Shown: in pieces, positions 52,189-63,225 of the stretch
How positions within the stretch are numbered: the first letter of the stretch is position 1
Layout of the letters: every line of letters starts with the position of its first letter
Program-made: the position numbers and the translations under genes
Assembly (NCBI GenBank): GCA_964291405.2
Contig: OZ219926.1
Coordinates: 160,001-224,000 of the forward strand
Direction of reading: 5' to 3'
DNA length: 64,000 nt
Source of the DNA: Thermodesulfobacteriota bacterium
Lineage (GTDB): Bacteria; Desulfobacterota; Binatia; Bin18
The notes under the pieces: model-generated
What the model saw: the letters and a program-made list of their open reading frames with translations, nothing else
Told to the model about the DNA's origin: nothing
The model's database searches: none

Positions 52189-53874
52189 TCACGGCAGGGT
52201 AAAGACCGCAACAGCGCTCCCCGGTGTGGTGTGGGGATATTTGCCCACGATGTCCACGACCAAGCCTCCGGCGCCACTGGGAACGGCAACGTACTGTTTA
52301 TCCCCAACCTTGTAGGAGACCGGTTGTCCTCGAACCGCGGATCCGGTCTGAAACTTCCACAAAACTTCGCCCGTTGCGTCATCTAAGGCTAGCGCAAATC
52401 CCTTTTGATTGCCCGTAAAGACGAGTCCGCCAGCTGTGGCGAGCGCGCCCCCCACCATCGGCCACTCGTCCTTATAGCGCCACTTCACCTCGCCGCTGGT
52501 CGGGTCTATGGCCGTGACGTGGCCGTAGGCCGTACCGAGGTCGCCCTGCGTTTGTCCGGGCCCTCCGCCCCAGAATGGGATACCCTTGATAAAAATAGAC
52601 CTAGCCTTTTCCATTTTGCCGCAGCTCTCGATCGTCGGGACAAAGATGAGGTTAGCCAGCGGACTGTAGGCCGCGGCATACGAACCGTTTTGTCCTCCTA
52701 CGTTCCCGGGACAGATGAGTTCAGGATTGCCACCTTCCATGGGCACGTACTGGGGGTCAACGATCGGACGGCCATTTTCATCTAGCCCTTTCGCCCAGTT
52801 GAGTTGCTCAACATACTGGGAGCCATGCAGAAACTTCCCATCCCCACGATTCAGGACATACATATACCCATTCCGATTGGGCTGGGCTAAGGCTTTAACA
52901 GACTCCCCACTGCGCGTGACGTCGAGCAGAAACATGCCCGTGTTGCCATCATAGTCCCAGACGTCGTGTGGGGTGAATTGGAAATACCATTTGATCTCAC
53001 CACTGTCTGGGTCAAGGGCTAACGCCGAGTTCGTGTAGAGATTATCGCCCTCACGTCCATCACCGTTCCAGTCAGGGGCCGGGTTGCCCGTTGCCCAATA
53101 CACCAAGTCAAGGTCTGCATCATACGAGCCAGTCACCCAGGCCGGACCACCGCCTTGTTTATACGAATCACCGGCCCAGGTCTCGACACCGGGCTCGCCT
53201 TCGTCAGGCACGGTATAACGACGCCACTTGCGCTCCCCAGTCTCAAGATCATAGGCATCGATATAGCCACGAATACCGTATTCACCGCCCGCAATACCAA
53301 CAATGACGTTATCTCGAACAATCAAGGGTGCTAGGGTAAAGCTAAAGCCACCCGCATAGTCGTCGGCTTTAGTATTCCACACGACAGTACCGGTTTTTCT
53401 GTCGAGCGCGACAATACGCGCATCCAGGGTAGCCATAATGACCTTATCCCCAGCCAGCGCCGCGCCCCGATTACCCGGCCCGCAGCAAATCCGCATATCA
53501 TCTGGCAATTCATGATCGTATTTCCAGAGCGGTTTACCCGTTGCGGCGTCTAAGGCAAACAGCTTATTGTAGGCCGCAGTAAGATACATGACGCCATCGG
53601 CAACCACCGGTGAGGCTTGCATTTGTGCCGGCACGCCGGTTTGGAAAATCCAGGCGGCCTGGAGTTTTTTGACGTTCCCACGGTCAATATCCTTCAGTGG
53701 GCTGAATCGCCAGCCGGCATAATTCCCGCCGTACATCAACCAGTCATTGGCCGGCTCCTGGAGTAAGCGCTCCTGCGTCACCGGCTGAAGCGCGTCGGCG
53801 TAAAGCGCGCCGGGAGAGAGAAACATGAGAGTGAATGCTATTGCTAAAAATTTCCACGACCAGGAACCTCGCAT
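52189..53874 (-). CDS. PQQ-dependent alcohol dehydrogenase, methanol/ethanol family, predicted lanthanide type (PedH/ExaF-like)
   Basis: Signal peptide, vicinal ICCG, GGEYGIRG, TGNPAPDWN, PHDVWDYDG with the extra Asp. Confidence 0.9.
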   Translation of the reverse strand: MRGSWSWKFLAIAFTLMFLSPGALYADALQPVTQERLLQEPANDWLMYGGNYAGWRFSPLKDIDRGNVKKLQAAWIFQTGVPAQMQASPVVADGVMYLTAAYNKLFALDAATGKPLWKYDHELPDDMRICCGPGNRGAALAGDKVIMATLDARIVALDRKTGTVVWNTKADDYAGGFSFTLAPLIVRDNVIVGIAGGEYGIRGYIDAYDLETGERKWRRYTVPDEGEPGVETWAGDSYKQGGGPAWVTGSYDADLDLVYWATGNPAPDWNGDGREGDNLYTNSALALDPDSGEIKWYFQFTPHDVWDYDGNTGMFLLDVTRSGESVKALAQPNRNGYMYVLNRGDGKFLHGSQYVEQLNWAKGLDENGRPIVDPQYVPMEGGNPELICPGNVGGQNGSYAAAYSPLANLIFVPTIESCGKMEKARSIFIKGIPFWGGGPGQTQGDLGTAYGHVTAIDPTSGEVKWRYKDEWPMVGGALATAGGLVFTGNQKGFALALDDATGEVLWKFQTGSAVRGQPVSYKVGDKQYVAVPSGAGGLVVDIVGKYPHTTPGSAVAVFTLP

Positions 53875-53920
53875 GAGTAATGCCTCCTCAGAGTGATTGC
53901 CAATCGAAAAATGTGGTCGA

Positions 53921-53949
53921 ACCCTACTGATTTTTATACCAGAGGTCAA
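53921..53949 (-). promoter_or_regulatory. Putative sigma70 promoter for the PQQ-ADH gene
   Basis: TTGACC-17 bp-TAGGGT on the minus strand in the AT-rich gap, about 45 bp before the ATG. Confidence 0.4.
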
Positions 53950-53979
53950 GAAAGAGGACACTGCATACGCCCCAGACTC

Positions 53980-54708
53980 TTAGGGAAAGAGGCGTAATCT
54001 TCTCCCCGCGAAGAGCACCCCGACGATACCGAATAAAACGATCGCTCCGTGCGTCCAGCCGTTCCAGACAAGTACATACGGGTCTCGCAGACGCGGTCTG
54101 GTTACGCCGGGAATGCTGGGAAGATCTCCATCTCCAGCGCCCACCTTAAGCTGCGCCTTCATTCCCTTTTCCATATGCTGAGGAACGTCACAGTGCACTA
54201 AATAGGTCTTGTCTCCGGGTGGGAGAATAAAAGTGCTTGTCCGCTGTCCTTTACCTGCCACCTCAAGCGTAAACATGCCCATGGGGTAGATATAGCGTGG
54301 CAGACCGTGCAGCATCCACTGGTGACGAACGGTGTCCGTATTGATGAGCGTTACCGTGAGTTTCGTACACGGCGCAAAACTCCATTCGTTTCGATCATAC
54401 GCAAACATCGTCCCCGGCTGGGCGAATTCTTTGCCGGCACGAACAGTGATCTCGTGTTCACCAGAGAGACGTGGACAGCCTCTGGGGAGTTGGTCCGTGT
54501 TTTCATTCATCACCATACCCGCAGTATCGAGATGCATGCCATGATGCGCATGATGATGGTGAGACTCAGGCTCTTGAGTCGAACCAACCTCACTGGAAAG
54601 CAAGACAAACAAGGTGCATACGACCAGTGTAGAGACAGTCTTCTGGAGTTGCCCTCCCCGGAACACCCCTGCCCTCTTCTGACTATTTTTCCTCAGAAAA
54701 AATCCCAT
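53980..54708 (-). CDS. Membrane-anchored cupredoxin (type-1 copper) with His-rich N-terminus
   Basis: HHHHAHHGMH; HQWM...HCDVPQHMEKGM type-1 ligand set; C-terminal TM helix. Confidence 0.82.
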   Translation of the reverse strand: MGFFLRKNSQKRAGVFRGGQLQKTVSTLVVCTLFVLLSSEVGSTQEPESHHHHAHHGMHLDTAGMVMNENTDQLPRGCPRLSGEHEITVRAGKEFAQPGTMFAYDRNEWSFAPCTKLTVTLINTDTVRHQWMLHGLPRYIYPMGMFTLEVAGKGQRTSTFILPPGDKTYLVHCDVPQHMEKGMKAQLKVGAGDGDLPSIPGVTRPRLRDPYVLVWNGWTHGAIVLFGIVGVLFAGRRLRLFP

Positions 54709-54720
54709 CAAAGATTCCTC

Positions 54721-56415
54721 TTAGCGGTATCGAACTCGTCGCTTGCTCAAGGCGAAGGCCGCACCGATAAGGAGACCGATACCTATTCCAAGTATGAGGG
54801 CATAACTCAGGGGTAGGGAACGAGCGCTGGCCTCCCCAAGCAGACCGAAGTCCTTCAGTCCGGCCCAGATGGGAAGCTTTTTTTGATAATACTCCTTGGT
54901 GAAAAACGGCGCCCAGTCCATCCCCTGTGTTTTCGGCTGACCGGATGTATCCAAATAGTCCTGGTAGACAATGGCGCTAATATTTCCACCGGGGTTGATC
55001 CCATCAGTGGTGATCGCTTTTTCCTTGTGGTCGTGGAGCAGCCAGACGCCTGGCCCATAATTGTGCAGGCCGTCATCAGTGGTGTTGAGAAGAAGGTCCA
55101 CCCGTTGGGCCGGGCTAATCCAGACCACATCACGAGTGATTTGTGCAGCCGGATTATGTTCGACACCATCATAATGCGTCAGTGTGACTTTATGCCCATG
55201 CGTATGCAGAGAAACGCCTTCTGCTCCGCCGTTGAGCACACGCAGTTTGACACGTTCATTCGGAGCAACAACAATCAGCGACTCACGGGTCGTGTAGGGA
55301 AAGGAGCGGCCGTTGAGTAGGAAATAGTCGGGGTCTTGATCTGTAATATCATAGCGGCGGTTGGTCGCCTCGGCGATCAACCGGGGATCACCTGCGGTCT
55401 GAATAATATTATTCAACGCCGGGTCAATGTCCTGGTAGTGCAAATCGAATTCCCGGTCATAGGACTCTCTGACTGCTGCGGAGACAGCGCGTACCCGGCC
55501 AGCCCCAATATTGAGCGTTTGAAGCCAGTTATTCGGACGGTTGTCCTCAACCACAAACATTCCCTGGAGCCCCATCAGAATATGGACATGCGGTTGGACG
55601 TGACAGTGATAAAACATCGTCCCCGTTTGACGCGGAGTCATTTCATAGGAGCGGCTTTCCCCTGGTGAGACTGGCATTTCGCTCGCAATCGGCACTCCAT
55701 CATTTCCCTCACCAGTGGCGTCAACAAAGGGATGGTCAACCCCGTGGAAGTGTATGGTGTGTGGCAGATAGTGCGTATTCTCCAAGGTTACCCGGAGCGT
55801 ATCACCCTGCTCTACACGAATCACCGGAGACGGGGCTCGCAAGGTCGGATGTGCCCACTCGCTCTCAAAATTTTCAGTCGCCATACCGCGTGATTTTGGT
55901 GCGAAAACCCACAGCCCTGGCTGGACACCCGGCGCAATGGCGTAGGCGGGAAACGGTGCAGGATCATCCGGCGAGTGCCCATTCAGTTCTACGACTTCAA
56001 GCCGGACATGAATCTCGTCAGGATCGCCATCCCCGTCTCTGTCGTTCTCTTTTACCACGGTATTTGGCGTCAGCCGGGTCTCCATAAGGGTGTGTAGACT
56101 AATATTATTCGTTCCTTTGACAAAGGCCGCAATTTCGGCCGGATTATCTGGGTCACACACGGGTGAGGCTTCTATGGTAACATCTTCAAGCGTCTGAGAC
56201 TCCCGCCAGTCTGCATGTCTGTCCAGACAGAATGGCTCCACACTGACAGGGCTTATTTGACGGCTGGGGGGTGGCTCCTGGTAAGACTCTTCACCAAGAT
56301 ATTGATACGCAATGTCTTGTATTGGGCGGGGGAGCCAGGTACGCGGCACGAGAAAGAGTGTACCGATAGCAAGCACACTAAGCAAAAAGAAGAAAAGCAG
56401 ACCGCGGAGCCACAT
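54721..56415 (-). CDS. Membrane-anchored two-domain multicopper oxidase
   Basis: HTIHFHG, YHCHVQPHVHILMG, LHTHGH, LLHDH; hydrophobic helices at both termini. Confidence 0.88.
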   Translation of the reverse strand: MWLRGLLFFFLLSVLAIGTLFLVPRTWLPRPIQDIAYQYLGEESYQEPPPSRQISPVSVEPFCLDRHADWRESQTLEDVTIEASPVCDPDNPAEIAAFVKGTNNISLHTLMETRLTPNTVVKENDRDGDGDPDEIHVRLEVVELNGHSPDDPAPFPAYAIAPGVQPGLWVFAPKSRGMATENFESEWAHPTLRAPSPVIRVEQGDTLRVTLENTHYLPHTIHFHGVDHPFVDATGEGNDGVPIASEMPVSPGESRSYEMTPRQTGTMFYHCHVQPHVHILMGLQGMFVVEDNRPNNWLQTLNIGAGRVRAVSAAVRESYDREFDLHYQDIDPALNNIIQTAGDPRLIAEATNRRYDITDQDPDYFLLNGRSFPYTTRESLIVVAPNERVKLRVLNGGAEGVSLHTHGHKVTLTHYDGVEHNPAAQITRDVVWISPAQRVDLLLNTTDDGLHNYGPGVWLLHDHKEKAITTDGINPGGNISAIVYQDYLDTSGQPKTQGMDWAPFFTKEYYQKKLPIWAGLKDFGLLGEASARSLPLSYALILGIGIGLLIGAAFALSKRRVRYR

Positions 56416-56498: not shown

Positions 56499-57029
56499 TT
56501 ATTTCATAGAAAACGGTGGCCAACCGCGTTTACCACCGACAACGTAATAACCCACGCCACCGCCAATAAGCAGGCCCGCGATCAAGACCAGCATGGTATT
56601 TGAGAGAGAAGCGACGCGGATTGGAAACCGCACCGCCCCATCAACCCCGTCAACTGTCATCAGGGCCGTGTACTGTCCGGGCGTATCAAAATTGACTTCA
56701 GCGTTCACTACACCGCTAGGATATACCCGCGCCGGAATATCGAGTAACAGTCGCGGTTCAGCCGCATTGGTTTCCTCAATAATACGAACCGCGGCCGATT
56801 TCTTACGCAATTCAGGATCAATCAGATCAAAAACGAGAATCGCACTCCCAGTCTGAGGAACGCTCCGACAGAATTCCTCGGTTGCGTATTCCTGCGGTTG
56901 GTAGGCGGAAAAATGGACCAGATAGACGCCTGCCCGCTCTACGCAGGGGTCCAGGTCCATGGCGACACCCCCATGTCCCCAGGCTCCTATTGGGACAAGG
57001 AGCATGGCAACAAGAAGGAACAGTTTCAC
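56499..57029 (-). CDS. pmoD: PmoD/AmoD-family copper protein (downstream copy)
   Basis: Signal then HGG..DPC...HFSAYQP...EFC..VP.TG..ILVFDL.D.ELR; C-terminal TM helix. Confidence 0.85.
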   Translation of the reverse strand: MKLFLLVAMLLVPIGAWGHGGVAMDLDPCVERAGVYLVHFSAYQPQEYATEEFCRSVPQTGSAILVFDLIDPELRKKSAAVRIIEETNAAEPRLLLDIPARVYPSGVVNAEVNFDTPGQYTALMTVDGVDGAVRFPIRVASLSNTMLVLIAGLLIGGGVGYYVVGGKRGWPPFSMK

Positions 57030-57081: not shown

Positions 57082-58342
57082 TTATGGCAGATAGGTTGAA
57101 CGAAACTGAGTGGGGACGACATTTGAACGGACCGTCACCAACTCATGCCCCTCATTCCCATTCTCAAAGCGTAAGACTGCGCCAATAAACTGTTGCGGCG
57201 CTTGCGTCGGGATGAGACGTTCCTCACCGAAAAGACTGCTTGAAACAGTCAGGGTCAGCTCTTTTGTTTCGTCCCGGAGTAATCGGTCCGTCCGGCTGTA
57301 CTTCGAGGCGACCCACAAAATCACGCGGACCGGCCTTGGCTTGCTCGGCTTCCGGTCCGTTCACAAAGGTCGCCATTGCTATAGTCAACTGCTTGAGTTC
57401 GATGTCGCTCTCGGCAACATTCGTCACCTGGACCTTCATCTCAAGCGTTTCACTCGCTTCGTCATATGTCGCTCCGCTGGCCTGTGCCTCGGCCATCTTT
57501 TCACCAGAAGAAATGAATTCCGGTGTAAACCAGTCCGTTTGCTGCGGCCACCGAACCGGCGCATTTGAGGTGGCGTACGTCCAACCGATAACCAGCATTA
57601 CCAGGGTTACGCCCACGATAACATTCATCCACATATGATCACGGGGCGTGATGAGACCGATATCGGGAGCATCATCGTTCACCGGAAGCTGGACAGTAAC
57701 GGCAAGATTGGTCACTGTTCTTTTGTTTGTCGTCCAGTACAGTATCCAGGCGACCCCCAGGACAAACCCGGCAAACGACCACCACCAGACGAATGCGCCG
57801 CCATACGTACTGAGCTCAATCGTCTCACCGGACAGCAGGGTGAGCGGGAAGGAGAACGGCTCCGCGCTGGGTTTGACGGTCACCCATTCACCGGGTCCAA
57901 TCAGGGTGCCGGTCCCGTATACGGCGATACCGGGATGGACATGCCAGTTCCCAGGCTCTTTGCCAACAAGCTCCATTTCAAACTCGTAAATACCCCCCTT
58001 TTGGGCAAAGAACGATCCAATCGCAGCCGTTCCGTTGACAAAACGCTCTTTGAGCACAAAGACCGGTCCGGGGACGACCGGCATAATGGAAGCGATTTCC
58101 GGCGTTTCCAGCGTATGAGGCCACGTCTCGAGAATCTTGACCGACCCCGTAACCTTGACCGGCTCTCCAACCTCAATTTCAGTCGGCGACACGCTGACAT
58201 TGAAGAAAGCCGTGGTCATGTTTTTCAAAAACGGTTCGTCGGCAGCCTCACCGTGGGCAAAAGCGTTCGGAGTATGAGTAACGACAACGGCCACTATGGC
58301 ACATAGTGCGCCAACACAGCCAATCATAAATCGCTTACCCAT
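57082..58342 (-). CDS. xmoB: Copper membrane monooxygenase subunit B (PmoB/AmoB family), split by a 1-bp frameshift at about 57271
   Basis: Signal then HGE.A.EPFL, WHVHP, GPG.WVTV, two TM helices; the C-terminus (ETKELTLTV...EERL) continues in another frame to 57082. Confidence 0.9.
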
Positions 58343-58676
58343 CGGCTGCCCTCCTGGTTTCAGGCTGCTCGTCTGGGAGTTGGAGCTTGGTTTCTATGAC
58401 ACGCAATCGGGGCTTACGCTTGATGCGAATAGCCGGACCCGTTTCCGGCGACCCGCGTCCGTCCGTCTCCACACCTTTCGATGCTGGCCACAAAACCACC
58501 AGCCAGTAACAGACAAACGCTAAGATACTCGCGGTAATGACGGGCGGGGCTATTTCAGAGATATTCATACCGTGCGCATACACGGGAGAAGGAAACAGAG
58601 ACAGGCCGGCAAGAAGAGCCATGAGCACAGAGCAGACTCTTCCGTATTGGGCGGGCTGCTGAGGTTCGAAAGACAT
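58335..58676 (-). CDS. Small membrane protein of unknown function between xmoA and xmoB
   Basis: RBS GAGGT, signal-like segment ending VYA-HGM, one TM helix, charged tail; stop overlaps the xmoB start. Confidence 0.7.
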   Translation of the reverse strand: MSFEPQQPAQYGRVCSVLMALLAGLSLFPSPVYAHGMNISEIAPPVITASILAFVCYWLVVLWPASKGVETDGRGSPETGPAIRIKRKPRLRVIETKLQLPDEQPETRRAADG

Positions 58677-58695
58677 ACCGCACCTCATATTTGTC

Positions 58696-59499
58696 TCACA
58701 CAGTTTTCAGATAGCGCCGAATCGGCCACACCGCCAGATACCGACCAATAAACTGACCGATCCAGTAGCCAGCAAAAGCCGCCGTTCCAGCAAAGGCCAG
58801 CGAAACGTATTGCGTCTCACCCAGGAAACTACGCAACGCGCCGCGTTCAATCAGCCGGAGGTATTCTGGAGTTTGAGAGCGGATATAGGCAATACCCTGA
58901 ACATCAGCAACCGTCACCACATGGTCCATAAAATAGGCCGGCTGGAGAAAGGCAGCTAGGGGGACGTAATTATAGGCCCACACCGCAATCGCCCACACGT
59001 GGGCGCCGATCAGCGAGGTGAGGATAAAACTCTTGGTCTTCATTAAGGTCCAGTCCATCAAGATCCCGGCGCAGACGACGGAGGCAGGCCACACGAAGTT
59101 CATAGGGTAGGTCGCTGCGAGGTCCCACTGAAAATACCGCCCAACCCAAGCCGCAAAAAACAAGCAACACGCAGTGTAGGTCGCACCAGTCGGAAAGCGC
59201 CAAGCCGTCCACTGGATGTATTGCAGCGTCGAGGGAATAATGATCGTGGCAAAGGCCGTGACCACAGGCCACCACTGTGGGTCTTTCCAATCTGTCCAGA
59301 AATCCCAGTCACCGGCAAATAACTGCTTGGTGATATCAGCGGCACCTGCTACCACAAAAACCGCCGTAGTCCAGAAGACAAGGTCCCACTTCCAATCAAC
59401 CCATTTATATTTCTTGTTGAGCAGTTCTTTGAGTTCGAGCCGCCGTTGCCGTTCCGCCGCATCTGCGATGTCGGTTACGGTTGTGGTTTCCGTCGCCAT
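58696..59499 (-). CDS. xmoA: Copper membrane monooxygenase subunit A (PmoA/AmoA family), divergent
   Basis: GDWDFWTDWKD, RFPTGAT, YPMNFVWP, ADVQG..YIRSQTPEYLRLIERGALRSF. Confidence 0.95.
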   Translation of the reverse strand: MATETTTVTDIADAAERQRRLELKELLNKKYKWVDWKWDLVFWTTAVFVVAGAADITKQLFAGDWDFWTDWKDPQWWPVVTAFATIIIPSTLQYIQWTAWRFPTGATYTACCLFFAAWVGRYFQWDLAATYPMNFVWPASVVCAGILMDWTLMKTKSFILTSLIGAHVWAIAVWAYNYVPLAAFLQPAYFMDHVVTVADVQGIAYIRSQTPEYLRLIERGALRSFLGETQYVSLAFAGTAAFAGYWIGQFIGRYLAVWPIRRYLKTV

Positions 59500-59563
59500 G
59501 CGCACTTCCTCTCTGCACGAGGATTTTCGATCCGTTTATCGACCAAAGCCCACACCGCCGTTA

Positions 59564-60412
59564 TTAGTCGGCGGCGATCGGCGACTCAAGCGAGGCTTCC
59601 GGGTTCGTATCCTCTTCGATCTTCTCTATCTCGAACATGCGCACCAGCGTCTCGCCCCACACGGCAAACATGCCTGCCGCAAGCCAGCCATAAATCACAA
59701 ACGGCCAGTGGAATGGAACAGAGAAAATTTCCTCGGAGATCCACAGGCTGTGGCCCCATTCATTTGCGGCAACCGCCATGCATTCGAGCACACAGGCGCT
59801 GATCAGCAGAAAGAACGACCAGGGAAATCCTTTGTCTCTTCCGTACAGCGCAGGAATATGGAACCGCCCGTAGATATAGGTCCCAACGGCCAATATGACC
59901 GAGAGGGGGAAGAAAAAGTAGAACATCGGGATATGGGTCGGGGTGAATGCCGTGTCACGAACCATGGTTTGGTGCCACGATCCATCCCAGTTCGGCCAGA
60001 AGCTGGCCATCAGATAGATAGCCAGACTCGTCGCGCCAATGAGGCTCCACAAAATCGCAATCCGGCGCGTCTCTTCGGCGGGTGAGCATTCTTGTCCTTC
60101 AATGGCCCGGCCATTCCGGATGAGCCAGCCCAACCACACACCGCTGAATATGCCTAAGACAATCAGTTCACCCCAGAACAGCGTCCAGTAATACATCGTG
60201 AATTCAGCGCTTGCTGAGTTCAGTCCGGCGGAGAACATAAAGGCGTAGTTCCAGTACCAGAAAAAAACATTGGCCAGCATGATCAGCCCGCACCCCCAGA
60301 AGAGAGGGTGCCAGCCGACTGACCAATCAGTCGGATTGGCCGGGTTGCCAGTTGTCATGGAACCATCGCCGGAACCTTTTGGTGCATTTTGTACTGCTTG
60401 CGCCTGAGCCAT
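59564..60412 (-). CDS. xmoC: Copper membrane monooxygenase subunit C (PmoC/AmoC family), divergent
   Basis: GLNS.S.EF..YW, DGSWHQTMVRDTAFTPTHI, NEWGHSLW..EE.F..PFHW.FV. Confidence 0.95.
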   Translation of the reverse strand: MAQAQAVQNAPKGSGDGSMTTGNPANPTDWSVGWHPLFWGCGLIMLANVFFWYWNYAFMFSAGLNSASAEFTMYYWTLFWGELIVLGIFSGVWLGWLIRNGRAIEGQECSPAEETRRIAILWSLIGATSLAIYLMASFWPNWDGSWHQTMVRDTAFTPTHIPMFYFFFPLSVILAVGTYIYGRFHIPALYGRDKGFPWSFFLLISACVLECMAVAANEWGHSLWISEEIFSVPFHWPFVIYGWLAAGMFAVWGETLVRMFEIEKIEEDTNPEASLESPIAAD

Positions 60413-60462: not shown

Positions 60463-61035
60463 TTATTTCACCAGTTCTTCTCTACCCCGAGCAGTGATCT
60501 TATAACGAATCACCGAGACCGCAAGAACGATAACCACTCCAAGGGTAATCAGCGCTGGTCCGACTAAGGCCTTATACCATGCCGCAACCTGAAAGGGAAA
60601 TGCAAATTTGCGCGGTTCACGTTCATCAGCAAGTCCGAGCATCACACGCACTTCGTAGCGTAGCCCTGCCTTGACAACGACTTCAGCGTTGGCCACGCCA
60701 CGTTCATATACTTGGAAAGGCAGGGACAGGACCGTATTCGACTGTCCGGGCTCATCTGAGGCAACGAGTTCAACACCGAACGGCATTTCCCACAGGTCGG
60801 GCGTCACGTCCACGACCAGGAAGGCATTCCCCACACGCGGGATTTCCTCACAATACTCCGTAACCGGGTCGAATTGAGTCTGATAAAACGTAATATGCAA
60901 GAGCGAAGCACCGACCTCCCGTCGGCATGGGTCTCCAGGCCCCCTGTCTCGATGCGCCCAGGATGACGCGGGAAGCACCAGGCAAAGCGTCACTACTACA
61001 GCGAGAAGAGAGGAGATTCGGCGAGTTCGTCTCAT
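60463..61035 (-). CDS. PmoD/AmoD/AmoE-family protein (upstream copy)
   Basis: Signal then HRD..DPC...HITFYQ...EYCEEIP..G...LVVD; C-terminal TM helix. Confidence 0.78.
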   Translation of the reverse strand: MRRTRRISSLLAVVVTLCLVLPASSWAHRDRGPGDPCRREVGASLLHITFYQTQFDPVTEYCEEIPRVGNAFLVVDVTPDLWEMPFGVELVASDEPGQSNTVLSLPFQVYERGVANAEVVVKAGLRYEVRVMLGLADEREPRKFAFPFQVAAWYKALVGPALITLGVVIVLAVSVIRYKITARGREELVK

Positions 61036-61124
61036 CGGTCGGTTCTTACAGAATTTCGGCATTGACCAAAGGCCCTGAGATAGCAGGATGAAAGAGTAGG
61101 GACAACTCCAGAACATAGCATTAT

Positions 61125-62109: not shown

Positions 62110-63225
62110 ATGCTCTCAGTTTTTTCAGCCCCAAGCCACTACGTACAGGGGAGGAACGCCACCGCGGCCCTAGGAACGGAAATGCAGCGCATCGGCCTAC
62201 GGGGGCCAGCGTGTATTGTTGCCGGGAAAAGTGCCATTCGGCTGCTTTCAGAAGTCTGGCAGAAACATTTGAACGATGCCGGCATCACCCATGTCGTCCA
62301 CCAGTTCGGGGGAGAGTGCTCCTATCCTGAAATCGAGCGTATCAAAGAAACAGCACGAGAGAATAAGGCTCAGGTCATTATTGGAGCGGGCGGTGGCAAG
62401 GTCTTGGACGCGGCCCGGGCCGCGGCAGACGACCTTGATCTTCCCGTCGTCAACTGTCCGAGCATTGCCTCAAGTGACGCACCGTGCAGCGCGCTGTCGG
62501 TGATCTATACCCCCGAGGGGGTATTCCAGGAATATCGCTTTTATCGAAAAAACCCAGACTTGGTTGTCGTGGATACCTATGTTGTCGCCCAAGCTCCAGC
62601 CAGGCTGCTTGTGGCCGGGATGGGAGATGCGCTGGCCACGTGGTTCGAGGCTAAAACCTGTGTTGCCGGCCACGTCCAGAATATGCGTGGTGGAGCCTCA
62701 ACGCGCAGCGCCGAAAAGCTGGCGGAGCTGTGTTACAACATCTTGGTTGAGGACGGCCCGGATGCCAAACGGGCCGTGGAACGGCATGTTGTCAATCCAG
62801 CCCTGGAGCGGCTGGTAGAAGCCAACACCCTGCTGTCGGGTTTGGGCTTCGAGTCCTCGGGCCTTGCCGCGGCCCATGCCATCCATAATGGTCTCACCGC
62901 AGCTCCACTCACCCATCCGTACTATCACGGGGAAAAAGTCGCCTATGGCCTGATGGCCCAGTTGGTGCTCGAAGGTCAGCCACGCTCGGTTATCGATCCG
63001 GTGCTGGAGTTTTCATCCGCGGTCGGTCTGCCCATCACTCTGGCCGAGATTGGGCTCAGCGAATTCTCAGAGGATATGCTTGAACAAGTCGCAGCGCGGG
63101 CGACCGCGGAAGGCGAAACCATCCATAACGAACCGTTTGACGTCCAGCCCGACATGGTTGCCGACGCCATTCTGGCCGCGGATTCGATGGGCCGCGCCTG
63201 GCAGGCCACGCACGAGGCACAGTAA
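62110..63225 (+). CDS. gldA: Glycerol dehydrogenase
   Basis: PSHYVQG, FGGECS, GGGKVLD, DAPCSALSVIY, GDALATWFEA, GLAAAHAIHNG, HGEKVA; start refined to ATG 62110. Confidence 0.93.
   Translation: MLSVFSAPSHYVQGRNATAALGTEMQRIGLRGPACIVAGKSAIRLLSEVWQKHLNDAGITHVVHQFGGECSYPEIERIKETARENKAQVIIGAGGGKVLDAARAAADDLDLPVVNCPSIASSDAPCSALSVIYTPEGVFQEYRFYRKNPDLVVVDTYVVAQAPARLLVAGMGDALATWFEAKTCVAGHVQNMRGGASTRSAEKLAELCYNILVEDGPDAKRAVERHVVNPALERLVEANTLLSGLGFESSGLAAAHAIHNGLTAAPLTHPYYHGEKVAYGLMAQLVLEGQPRSVIDPVLEFSSAVGLPITLAEIGLSEFSEDMLEQVAARATAEGETIHNEPFDVQPDMVADAILAADSMGRAWQATHEAQ

Follow-up and report, generated by a model that had tools for sequence, protein, structure and literature searches.

Genes and substituted residues of the cluster

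The 64,000-nucleotide stretch analysed here (the window; contig OZ219926.1, positions 160,001 to 224,000, from a Binatia genome) holds a copper membrane monooxygenase (CuMMO) gene cluster on its minus strand, at approximately 52-61 kb. Enzymes of this family catalyse the initial step in the oxidation of methane, ammonia and short alkanes, and where their active site lies was a matter of dispute for decades. The cluster is arranged in the order of a pmoD-like gene, xmoC, xmoA, a small open reading frame (ORF) designated x, xmoB, pmoD, and genes for a multicopper oxidase, a cupredoxin-like protein and an alcohol dehydrogenase dependent on pyrroloquinoline quinone (PQQ). Unless stated otherwise, the features described below lie on the minus strand.

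The xmoC gene (59564-60412) encodes 282 residues and matches Pfam AmoC with 148.1 bits (gathering cut-off 26.7) and the PmoC chains of the PDB with E 9e-39. It is followed by xmoA (58696-59505), which encodes 269 residues from a GTG start and matches Pfam AMO with 178.7 bits (cut-off 27.5) and PDB PmoA with E 3e-42; the database protein P0001, identical to XmoA, begins two residues later (267 aa). The ORF x (58335-58688, 117 aa) separates xmoA from xmoB (57082-58342), whose product matches Pfam Monooxygenase_B with 222.3 bits (cut-off 22.7) and PDB PmoB with E 1e-51. All three Pfam scores thus lie far above the gathering cut-offs, and the genes stand in the order C-A-x-B on one strand, as is required of a three-subunit member of the CuMMO superfamily. 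Against the NCBIfam equivalogs AmoA_BACT, AmoB_BACT and AmoC_BACT (TIGR03078-03080), the scores remain below every cut-off (A 192.3 vs 290, B 247.2 vs 336, C 158.8 vs 319); the equivalog cut-off is passed only by P0160 and P0142, two representatives of the wider family, and by Methylomagnum PxmA. Because the Pfam scores are well over threshold and the equivalog scores all under, the enzyme is, as judged by these models, a true CuMMO and not a canonical methane or ammonia enzyme. The particulate methane monooxygenase (pMMO) of Methylococcus capsulatus Bath (1yew, 3rgb, 7s4h, 7ev9) has the same three subunits and, by sequence, the same fold (E 3e-42, 5e-30 and 1e-51), and shares with the window the CuB, CuC and CuD ligands and PmoA residues D47, W48, D49 and R104; the window differs from it in the extra small gene x and in scoring below all the equivalog cut-offs.

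In the phmmer alignment of XmoA to chains of solved structures (1yew_B and others, E 3e-42), residues 55-70 of XmoA (AADITKQLFAGDWDFW; 59296-59343) pair without gaps with the M. capsulatus PmoA segment SYHIHAMLTMGDWDFW. Within this segment, D57, T59, K60, Q61 and A64 occupy the positions of H38, H40, A41, M42 and M45 (H38D, H40T, A41K, M42Q and M45A), followed by D66, W67 and D68, which correspond to the retained D47, W48 and D49. In a second segment, AAWVGRY (residues 118-124; 59134-59154) takes the place of GEWINRY, with A119 at E100 and G122 at N103 (E100A, N103G), while R123 preserves R104. In XmoC, aligned to Methylocystis PmoC (4phz_K) and numbered after M. capsulatus PmoC as given in PMC12576850, PNWDGSWH replaces TEQDGTWH, so that N141 and W142 of the NWDGSWH stretch (residues 141-147; 59972-59992) stand at E154 and Q155 (E154N, Q155W). 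The substitutions H38D, H40T, M42Q and E100A in XmoA and E154N and Q155W in XmoC, all proposed in the initial annotation, are therefore borne out by the alignments, and M45A and N103G are additional to them.

The metal ligands are kept, in agreement with the same annotation. Both triads of XmoC are intact, CuC as D143, H147 and H160 (the first two within the NWDGSWH stretch) and CuD as N217, H221 and H235, and the same ligands recur in every one of the 75 related loci that have a C gene. In the region of CuD, 17 of 30 residues are identical between XmoC and Methylocystis PmoC. The histidine brace of XmoB, which forms CuB, is present as H30 (in AHGE, the predicted first mature residue after the signal peptide) and as H134 and H136 (in WHVH); all 77 related B genes have HGE, and WHVH is present in 74 of them, the other three not being covered at this site.

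The tricopper site (CuE) of Chan's model presumably has PmoC E154 as its sixth residue. Its PmoA residues are given as H38, M42, D47, D49 and E100 in the pertinent section of PMC9145241. The window has D, Q, D, D and A at these five positions and N at C154, so that, with E154 assumed, two of six residues are kept and four replaced, the count at which the initial annotation had also arrived. In 7ev9, the residues neighbouring the modelled coppers are reported as H38, M42, N103, E100 and R104 (PMC12576850), of which XmoA differs at four and keeps R104.

Distribution of the substitutions among CuMMOs

The substitutions recur throughout the relatives of XmoA. Among the best 120 of its 242 database relatives (E 0.001), which are 58-100% identical to it, position 38 is D in 95, N in 20, F in 2 and Y in 1 (2 gaps), and H in none; position 40 is T in 118 (2 gaps); position 42 is L in 96, Q in 16, I in 3, and A, S, M and N in one each (1 gap). 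Position 45 is A in 117, position 100 is S in 56, A in 38, T in 18, V in 6 and Q in 2, with E in none, and position 103 is G in 116 and A in 4. The retained residues are equally constant, with D47, W48 and D49 in 119 each (1 gap) and R104 in 118. In XmoC, position 154 is N in 121 of 121 rows (the 120 listed relatives and the window), as NW in 117, NQ in 3 and NS in 1. A scan of one genome per species yielded 80 related loci with XmoA 73-100% identical, most of them titled Candidatus Binatia, Binataceae or the older Deltaproteobacteria and Proteobacteria labels, together with a few other labels of metagenome-assembled genomes (MAGs). With the CAxB order, these loci assign the window to the 'bmoA-like' type of Binatia. 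The 75 Binatia loci yielding both genes agree with the window in the motifs of A and C and in each of the six C ligands, and PNWD is found in 75 of 75 related loci yielding a C gene. The substitutions are a shared signature of a large lineage and not a peculiarity of the window genome; the earlier view of the pattern as peculiar to this operon, and as a natural experiment in that sense, is not upheld, since the signature is invariant across the whole clade. The combination of DITK...GDWDFW in A and PNWD in C provides a handy marker for the lineage.

A maximum likelihood (ML) tree of 34 A subunits, with clades labelled by the NCBIfam scan and by named plasmid records, places XmoA in a monophyletic clade of 13 rows with support 100/100 and a stem of 0.54 changes per column. 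The other database names in this clade are Acidobacteria, Caldinitratiruptor, Dormibacteraeota, Carbonactinospora, Lentzea, Egibacteraceae and Actinomycetes. The hydrocarbon monooxygenases (HMOs) of NBB4, Rhodococcus WAY2 and M. dioxanotrophicus form a separate clade (100/98), and both clades lie away from the canonical representative P0160 and from pXMO. XmoA is 42-45% identical to the NBB4-type sequences and falls outside the actinobacterial clade of HMO and butane monooxygenase (BMO) of the NBB4 type.

A characterised counterpart for comparison, HmoCAB of M. chubuense NBB4 (plasmid pMYCCH.01), is reported to oxidise ethane, propane, butane and ethylene (PMC4678205). It resembles the window in its CAB operon, its side of the tree and its retained CuC and CuD ligands, and likewise has E100 replaced (Q) and H40 replaced (N); D49 is also replaced (S). 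Unlike the window, it keeps H38, M42 and PmoC E154 (AEED) and has no gene between A and B. The two enzymes share 42% identity in A and 36.5% in C and belong to separate, well-supported clades, and the NBB4 HMO family is much smaller, with 50 database proteins vs 242 for XmoA. The pXMO of Methylomagnum ishizawai (PxmABC) is another divergent CuMMO in which M42 (A) and E100 (T) are lost, as in the window, but it has ABC order, keeps H38, H40 and PmoC E154, lies on the canonical side of the tree with pMMO and ammonia monooxygenase (AMO), and passes the AmoA_BACT cut-off.

Across the wider family, a search of representatives (one protein per 50%-identity cluster, from 1.84 billion proteins) gave 173 CuMMO A clusters, and 28 of the 36 representatives of at least 200 aa were used; P0140, P0157, P0174, P0185, P0191, P0201, P0215 and P0223 were dropped as poorly aligned or fragmentary. 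Among the 28, H38 is present in 17, M42 in 11, E100 in 9, D49 in 18, D47 and W48 in 26 each, and R104 in 21. As only 11 and 9 of them keep M42 and E100, each of these two residues is missing from most of the family, and H38 is frequently lost as well. Read in the order A38, A40, A42, A49, A100, A103 and C154, the residues are H, H, M, D, E, N and E in M. capsulatus pMMO (literature numbering), D, T, Q, D, A, G and N in the window, H, N, M, S, Q, S and E in NBB4 HmoA/HmoC, H, H, A, D, T, T and E in Methylomagnum PxmA/PxmC, and H, S, M, D, A, S and E in a second CuMMO operon of the window genome. H38 occurs together with E154 in all six other A/C pairs that could be read, namely those of NBB4, Rhodococcus WAY2, M. 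dioxanotrophicus, Methylomagnum pXMO, the second operon and the C-A fusion P0125. Neither H38D/H40T in A nor E154N/Q155W in C was found in the readable HMO, pXMO or TUSC-like sequences. The particular replacement set, its strict conservation and the change at C 154/155 are clade-specific. The possibility that such substitutions are common in HMO and pXMO enzymes, against which the initial annotation was to be checked, thus holds for the loss of E100 and M42 and fails for H38D/H40T and E154N/Q155W. Co-variation statistics for A38 and C154 were considered and rejected, because all D/N pairs come from a single clade and represent one evolutionary event.

In the window genome, the second operon (L001, G000:C3:2793840-2797508) has CAB order and an intact B of 436 aa; its A subunit is 39% identical to window XmoA and 97% to representative P0131. 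It keeps H38, M42, M45 and C E154, with A at position 100, and may be of the TUSC-like type described for Binatia. Among the representatives, P0125 (514 aa) joins C and A with both motif sets, and P0142 (985 aa) carries an A domain at residues 670-904; either may be a real fusion or a gene-calling artefact.

The lineage is already known from metagenomes and published, and the locus adds a member to it. According to Murphy et al. 2021 (PMC8262859), in the passages on these enzymes, the CuMMOs of Binatota comprise an 'Actinobacteria/SAR324' bmoA-like type and a TUSC type; the genes stand in CAB, CAxB or CAxxB order, some of the genomes also have pmoD, and the PmoB histidines are conserved. A 2026 preprint (10.64898/2026.02.02.703227) names the bmoA-like type 'Putative pmoA Binatales' and, in the part concerned, places both types with the hydrocarbon monooxygenases. 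The Binatia bmoA-like CuMMO described there has the same CAxB order with a hypothetical gene, a nearby pmoD and the CuB histidines, and the window is a member of it. In their main-text passages, the papers on this type check the PmoB histidines only, and the PmoA/PmoC patch is not covered there. A search of the available main texts found no paper in which replacement of the tricopper residues is stated for HMO-like or Binatia CuMMOs.

Function, mechanism and substrate

The operon is under strong purifying selection. In pairwise comparisons with eight relatives, the ratio dN/dS (omega) is 0.035-0.079 for xmoC, 0-0.061 for xmoA, 0.047-0.118 for the N-terminal part of xmoB, 0.067-0.22 for the xmoB segment after a frameshift in the assembly (see below) and 0.11-0.44 for x; the XmoA protein is 100% identical to that of locus L003 at dS 0.23. 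A very large and widespread clade therefore keeps the CuB, CuC and CuD ligands under strong purifying selection while the tricopper residues are replaced. DNA of the window occurs in sequencing runs that include several sponge metagenomes, and contigs from sponge metatranscriptomes match xmoC, xmoA and xmoB, the best of them differing at 0-1 positions; records 17, 18 and 20 of run X17 show 0-1 differences over 329, 123 and 644 bases. These contigs agree with the transcription of pmoA by sponge Binatota reported in PMC9999580; transcription of this particular locus is compatible with them and is not proven by them.

The locus is best explained, with considerable confidence, as a functional CuMMO cluster of an uncultured, sponge-associated Binatia bacterium, belonging to the Binatia branch of the HMO-related clade. 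By homology to solved pMMO and AMO, the products would assemble into an A3B3C3 complex whose XmoB subunit binds copper in a histidine brace of H30, H134 and H136, and the chemistry of oxygen and substrate would take place at the XmoC copper site or sites, CuC/CuD. The PmoA residues of Chan's tricopper model are replaced clade-wide by a different, equally conserved polar set, consisting in XmoA of D/N at 38, T at 40, K/R at 41, L/Q at 42, A at 45, S/A/T at 100 and G at 103, and in XmoC of N at 154, then W at 155 in the Binatia branch. Since the replacement extends throughout the clade and the new set is itself conserved, the patch would be a remodelled, selected structural element beside CuC and not a metal site needed by all CuMMOs. 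The patch, formed by A 38-45 and 100-104 and C 154-155, adjoins the CuC ligand D156 in sequence. A quantum-refinement study describes, for pMMO, waters in this patch that are hydrogen-bonded to H38, N103, R104 and E100, and not copper (PMC12576850). In the window clade, the acidic residue at 100 is lost, an acidic or amide residue is gained at 38 and R104 is unchanged, from which we infer that the partner of the conserved arginine in a hydrogen bond or salt bridge may have been relocated and the A-C interface repacked.

This pattern agrees with chemistry in the C subunit. The argument of the initial annotation, that the locus is a natural test favouring a PmoC-centred active site, is logically sound, yet it adds little, as an active site in the C subunit is already favoured in the relevant parts of PMC12576850 and PMC13058606. 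According to the same sources, CuB is dispensable and not universal, its mutation in a recombinant mycobacterial HMO did not abolish activity, and CuD, observed in lipid nanodiscs, is a binding site for a product analogue; the modelled tricopper site is described as lacking structural support (PMC12576850). Because the C-subunit view already rests on structures, spectroscopy and mutagenesis, what the clade adds is support by comparison, not a new test.

The substrate is most likely a short-chain hydrocarbon (C2-C4 alkanes or alkenes), a suggestion that draws weakly on three indications. The clade lies in the hydrocarbon part of the tree, as also in the preprint passage cited above (10.64898/2026.02.02.703227). 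The adjacent PQQ-dependent alcohol dehydrogenase (52189-53961, 590 aa; TIGR03075, 595.8 bits, over cut-off) is nearest to ethanol-type enzymes, with the quinoprotein ethanol dehydrogenases 6zcv and 6zcw as its best PDB matches (E 4e-126 and 7e-125) and the methanol dehydrogenase 4mae as a weaker one (E 1e-101). Finally, genes for Fae and Mch were not found in the genome (4.95 Mb in 3 contigs, rated 97.5% complete). The alcohol produced by the monooxygenase would then be handed to the neighbouring ethanol-type dehydrogenase.

Several points weigh against this reading of function and substrate. The genome encodes five PQQ dehydrogenases of the methanol/ethanol family over cut-off and a sixth locus below it, which weakens the hint drawn from the neighbouring gene, and dehydrogenases of the PedH/ExaF type also oxidise methanol. 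A measured activity for any member of the clade was not found in the literature, and Nocardioides CF8 BmoA is not named among the best 120 relatives of XmoA or the 50 relatives of NBB4 HmoA. The word 'functional' draws on conservation, selection and the RNA-library contigs; RNA libraries can carry DNA, and the contigs do not reveal transcript levels. Contacts of the replaced A and C residues with each other or with the copper sites are putative. In the sponge literature, the gene is interpreted as a methane monooxygenase (PMC9999580).

That interpretation, which makes the enzyme a genuine particulate methane monooxygenase and gives the bacterium the role of a methane sink in sponges, is in our estimation unlikely. 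It has in its favour the transcription of pmoA by sponge Binatota (bin18), taken as methane oxidation in the corresponding part of PMC9999580, and the passage in Murphy et al. 2021 (PMC8262859) that leaves methane open for this CuMMO type; every copper ligand is intact, and the five methanol/ethanol-family dehydrogenases over cut-off would be compatible with it. However, XmoA reaches 192 and 160 bits where the NCBIfam equivalog cut-offs are 290 and 318, and it branches on the hydrocarbon-monooxygenase side of the tree, away from P0160 and pXMO. The genome is without detected Fae or Mch, and the neighbouring PQQ dehydrogenase is nearer to the ethanol type than to XoxF or MxaF. A 'pmoA' hit of this type in sponge or soil data should not be equated with methanotrophy by default.

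It is similarly doubtful that the rewritten polar cluster reshapes the substrate pocket and directs the enzyme to a substrate unlike those of both pMMO and actinobacterial HMO. The replaced residues are invariant over approximately 58-100% identity and several phyla, which argues for function and not drift; the changes in A (38, 40, 41, 100 and 103) accompany those at C 154/155, directly beside the CuC ligand D156, and H38 and E154 remain together in each of the six other readable A/C pairs. On the other hand, the changes trace to a single evolutionary event and hence provide no statistical co-variation, the CuD stretch is conserved with methanotroph PmoC (17/30 identical), and the patch may be a mere alternative solution of packing or hydrogen bonding at the A-C interface. 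A more elaborate and equally speculative proposal joins the coupled replacement (XmoA H38D/N, H40T, A41K/R, E100S/A/T and N103G; XmoC E154N, then Q155W in the Binatia branch) into a second-sphere or interface module next to CuC which, together with x and the two PmoD paralogues, would define a distinct CuMMO class with its own substrate range. If this were true, such a class would be present in sponge holobionts and soils, and the clade would offer the cleanest natural background for finding the non-ligand residues that tune CuMMO specificity. Less explored aspects of the locus are the conserved patch, which may act as a specificity module, the two PmoD paralogues and the protein x with its predicted initial His.

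The xmoB reading frame and the accessory genes

A defect overlooked in the initial annotation is that xmoB, as assembled, has a base too many at 57271-57273 (ccgggAcgaaac on the minus strand), so that the ORF ends at 372 aa. This N-terminal part (57224-58342) includes the CuB ligands and aligns to residue 364 of 414 of M. capsulatus PmoB, and the C-terminus resumes in another frame, in which the last 62 residues are encoded (57082-57270). The extra base has no counterpart in any of 23 relatives aligned across a 120-base stretch, and of the 74 loci in which both parts are present, 70 encode xmoB in a single frame. In the remaining four loci (L042, L059, L080 and L082, all long-read MAGs), B is split elsewhere, over two or three frames, which suggests that indel errors are common in these long-read assemblies. 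A programmed frameshift in xmoB was considered and rejected, as relatives encode B in one frame at this site.

All four public contigs over the site, from three runs, omit one base, at 57271 or at 57273. The omission accounts for a depth of 62.7 of 62.7 in X1, 2.6 + 5.78 of 8.39 in X2 and 7.4 of 7.4 in the RNA run X15, and X17 has no cover at the site. Both in-frame alleles occur in X2, one encoding Pro-Gly-Glu (57271 omitted) and the other Pro-Asp-Glu (57273 omitted), and in view of these two versions, the assembled sequence looks as if two alleles had been merged. As the extra base is absent from 23 of 23 relatives and from 4 of 4 contigs, the frameshift probably arose in assembly, at a codon that is polymorphic; failing that, it would be no more than a minor variant. 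A point on the other side, and so against a functional cluster, is that the window's own version of the site occurs in none of the listed contigs, that contigs drop rare variants, and that X1 may be the source sample.

Decay of the operon into a pseudogene cluster, with a real frameshift and a dead enzyme in this strain, was the outcome that the initial annotation had asked to have checked; it would fit an XmoB that stops at residue 372 without the last strands of its C-terminal cupredoxin domain, and the split B genes of L042, L059, L080 and L082, but it is highly improbable, given a single one-base insertion with no further defect, a segment past the shift that is open to its natural stop and under purifying selection (omega 0.067-0.22), intact A and C with omega below 0.08, the lack of the extra base in all 23 aligned relatives and four public contigs, and the PGE and PDE in-frame variants in X2 that make a merge of two alleles likely-looking. 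The xmoB frameshift in the assembly is accordingly not to be taken as gene decay.

The protein x has a signal peptide, a predicted mature end that begins with His (YA|HG) and one membrane helix, and the 3' end of its gene overlaps the start of xmoB by 8 bases. It gave no match in Pfam or NCBIfam, and its motif AHG..E[IL]GPP..YW..WP is found in 73 of the 80 related loci. On these features, x is a candidate extra subunit or copper-handling protein.

Downstream of xmoB lies the gene of a PmoD-type accessory protein (56499-57029, 176 aa) with a signal peptide, a periplasmic domain and a C-terminal helix, which matches PmoD 6cpd_A with E 7.5e-10 in the PDB sequence search. Homologues are present in 55 of the 80 loci at low identity (28-35%), and in many more distant loci the PmoD homologue sits at the position of the upstream paralogue. 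The latter (60463-61116, 217 aa), directly upstream of xmoC, is 33% identical to the 176-aa protein (E 1e-17) and is present in 57 of 80 loci. Neither PmoD-like protein has a match in Pfam or NCBIfam, the PmoD link of the 176-aa protein coming from the PDB search only. In both, a His follows directly after the predicted end of the signal peptide (WG|HG and WA|HR), as in XmoB and x.

The multicopper oxidase gene (54721-56415, 564 aa; Pfam Cu-oxidase_3, Cu-oxidase_2 and Cu-oxidase) is located downstream of the PmoD gene and is found in 32 of 80 related loci. It is followed by the gene of a weakly cupredoxin-like protein (53980-54711, 243 aa), with Pfam matches to Cu-oxidase_2 (E 8.5e-4) and Copper-bind (E 7e-3), both below threshold. 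These two genes and that of the PQQ dehydrogenase are syntenic in closer relatives. Elsewhere in the genome, five weaker PQQ dehydrogenase matches stand in tandem at C3:1.10-1.11 Mb. Upstream of the cluster, a divergent gene on the plus strand (62119-63225) belongs to the glycerol-dehydrogenase family (NF006941, 492.6 bits) and is present in 27 of the 80 related loci.

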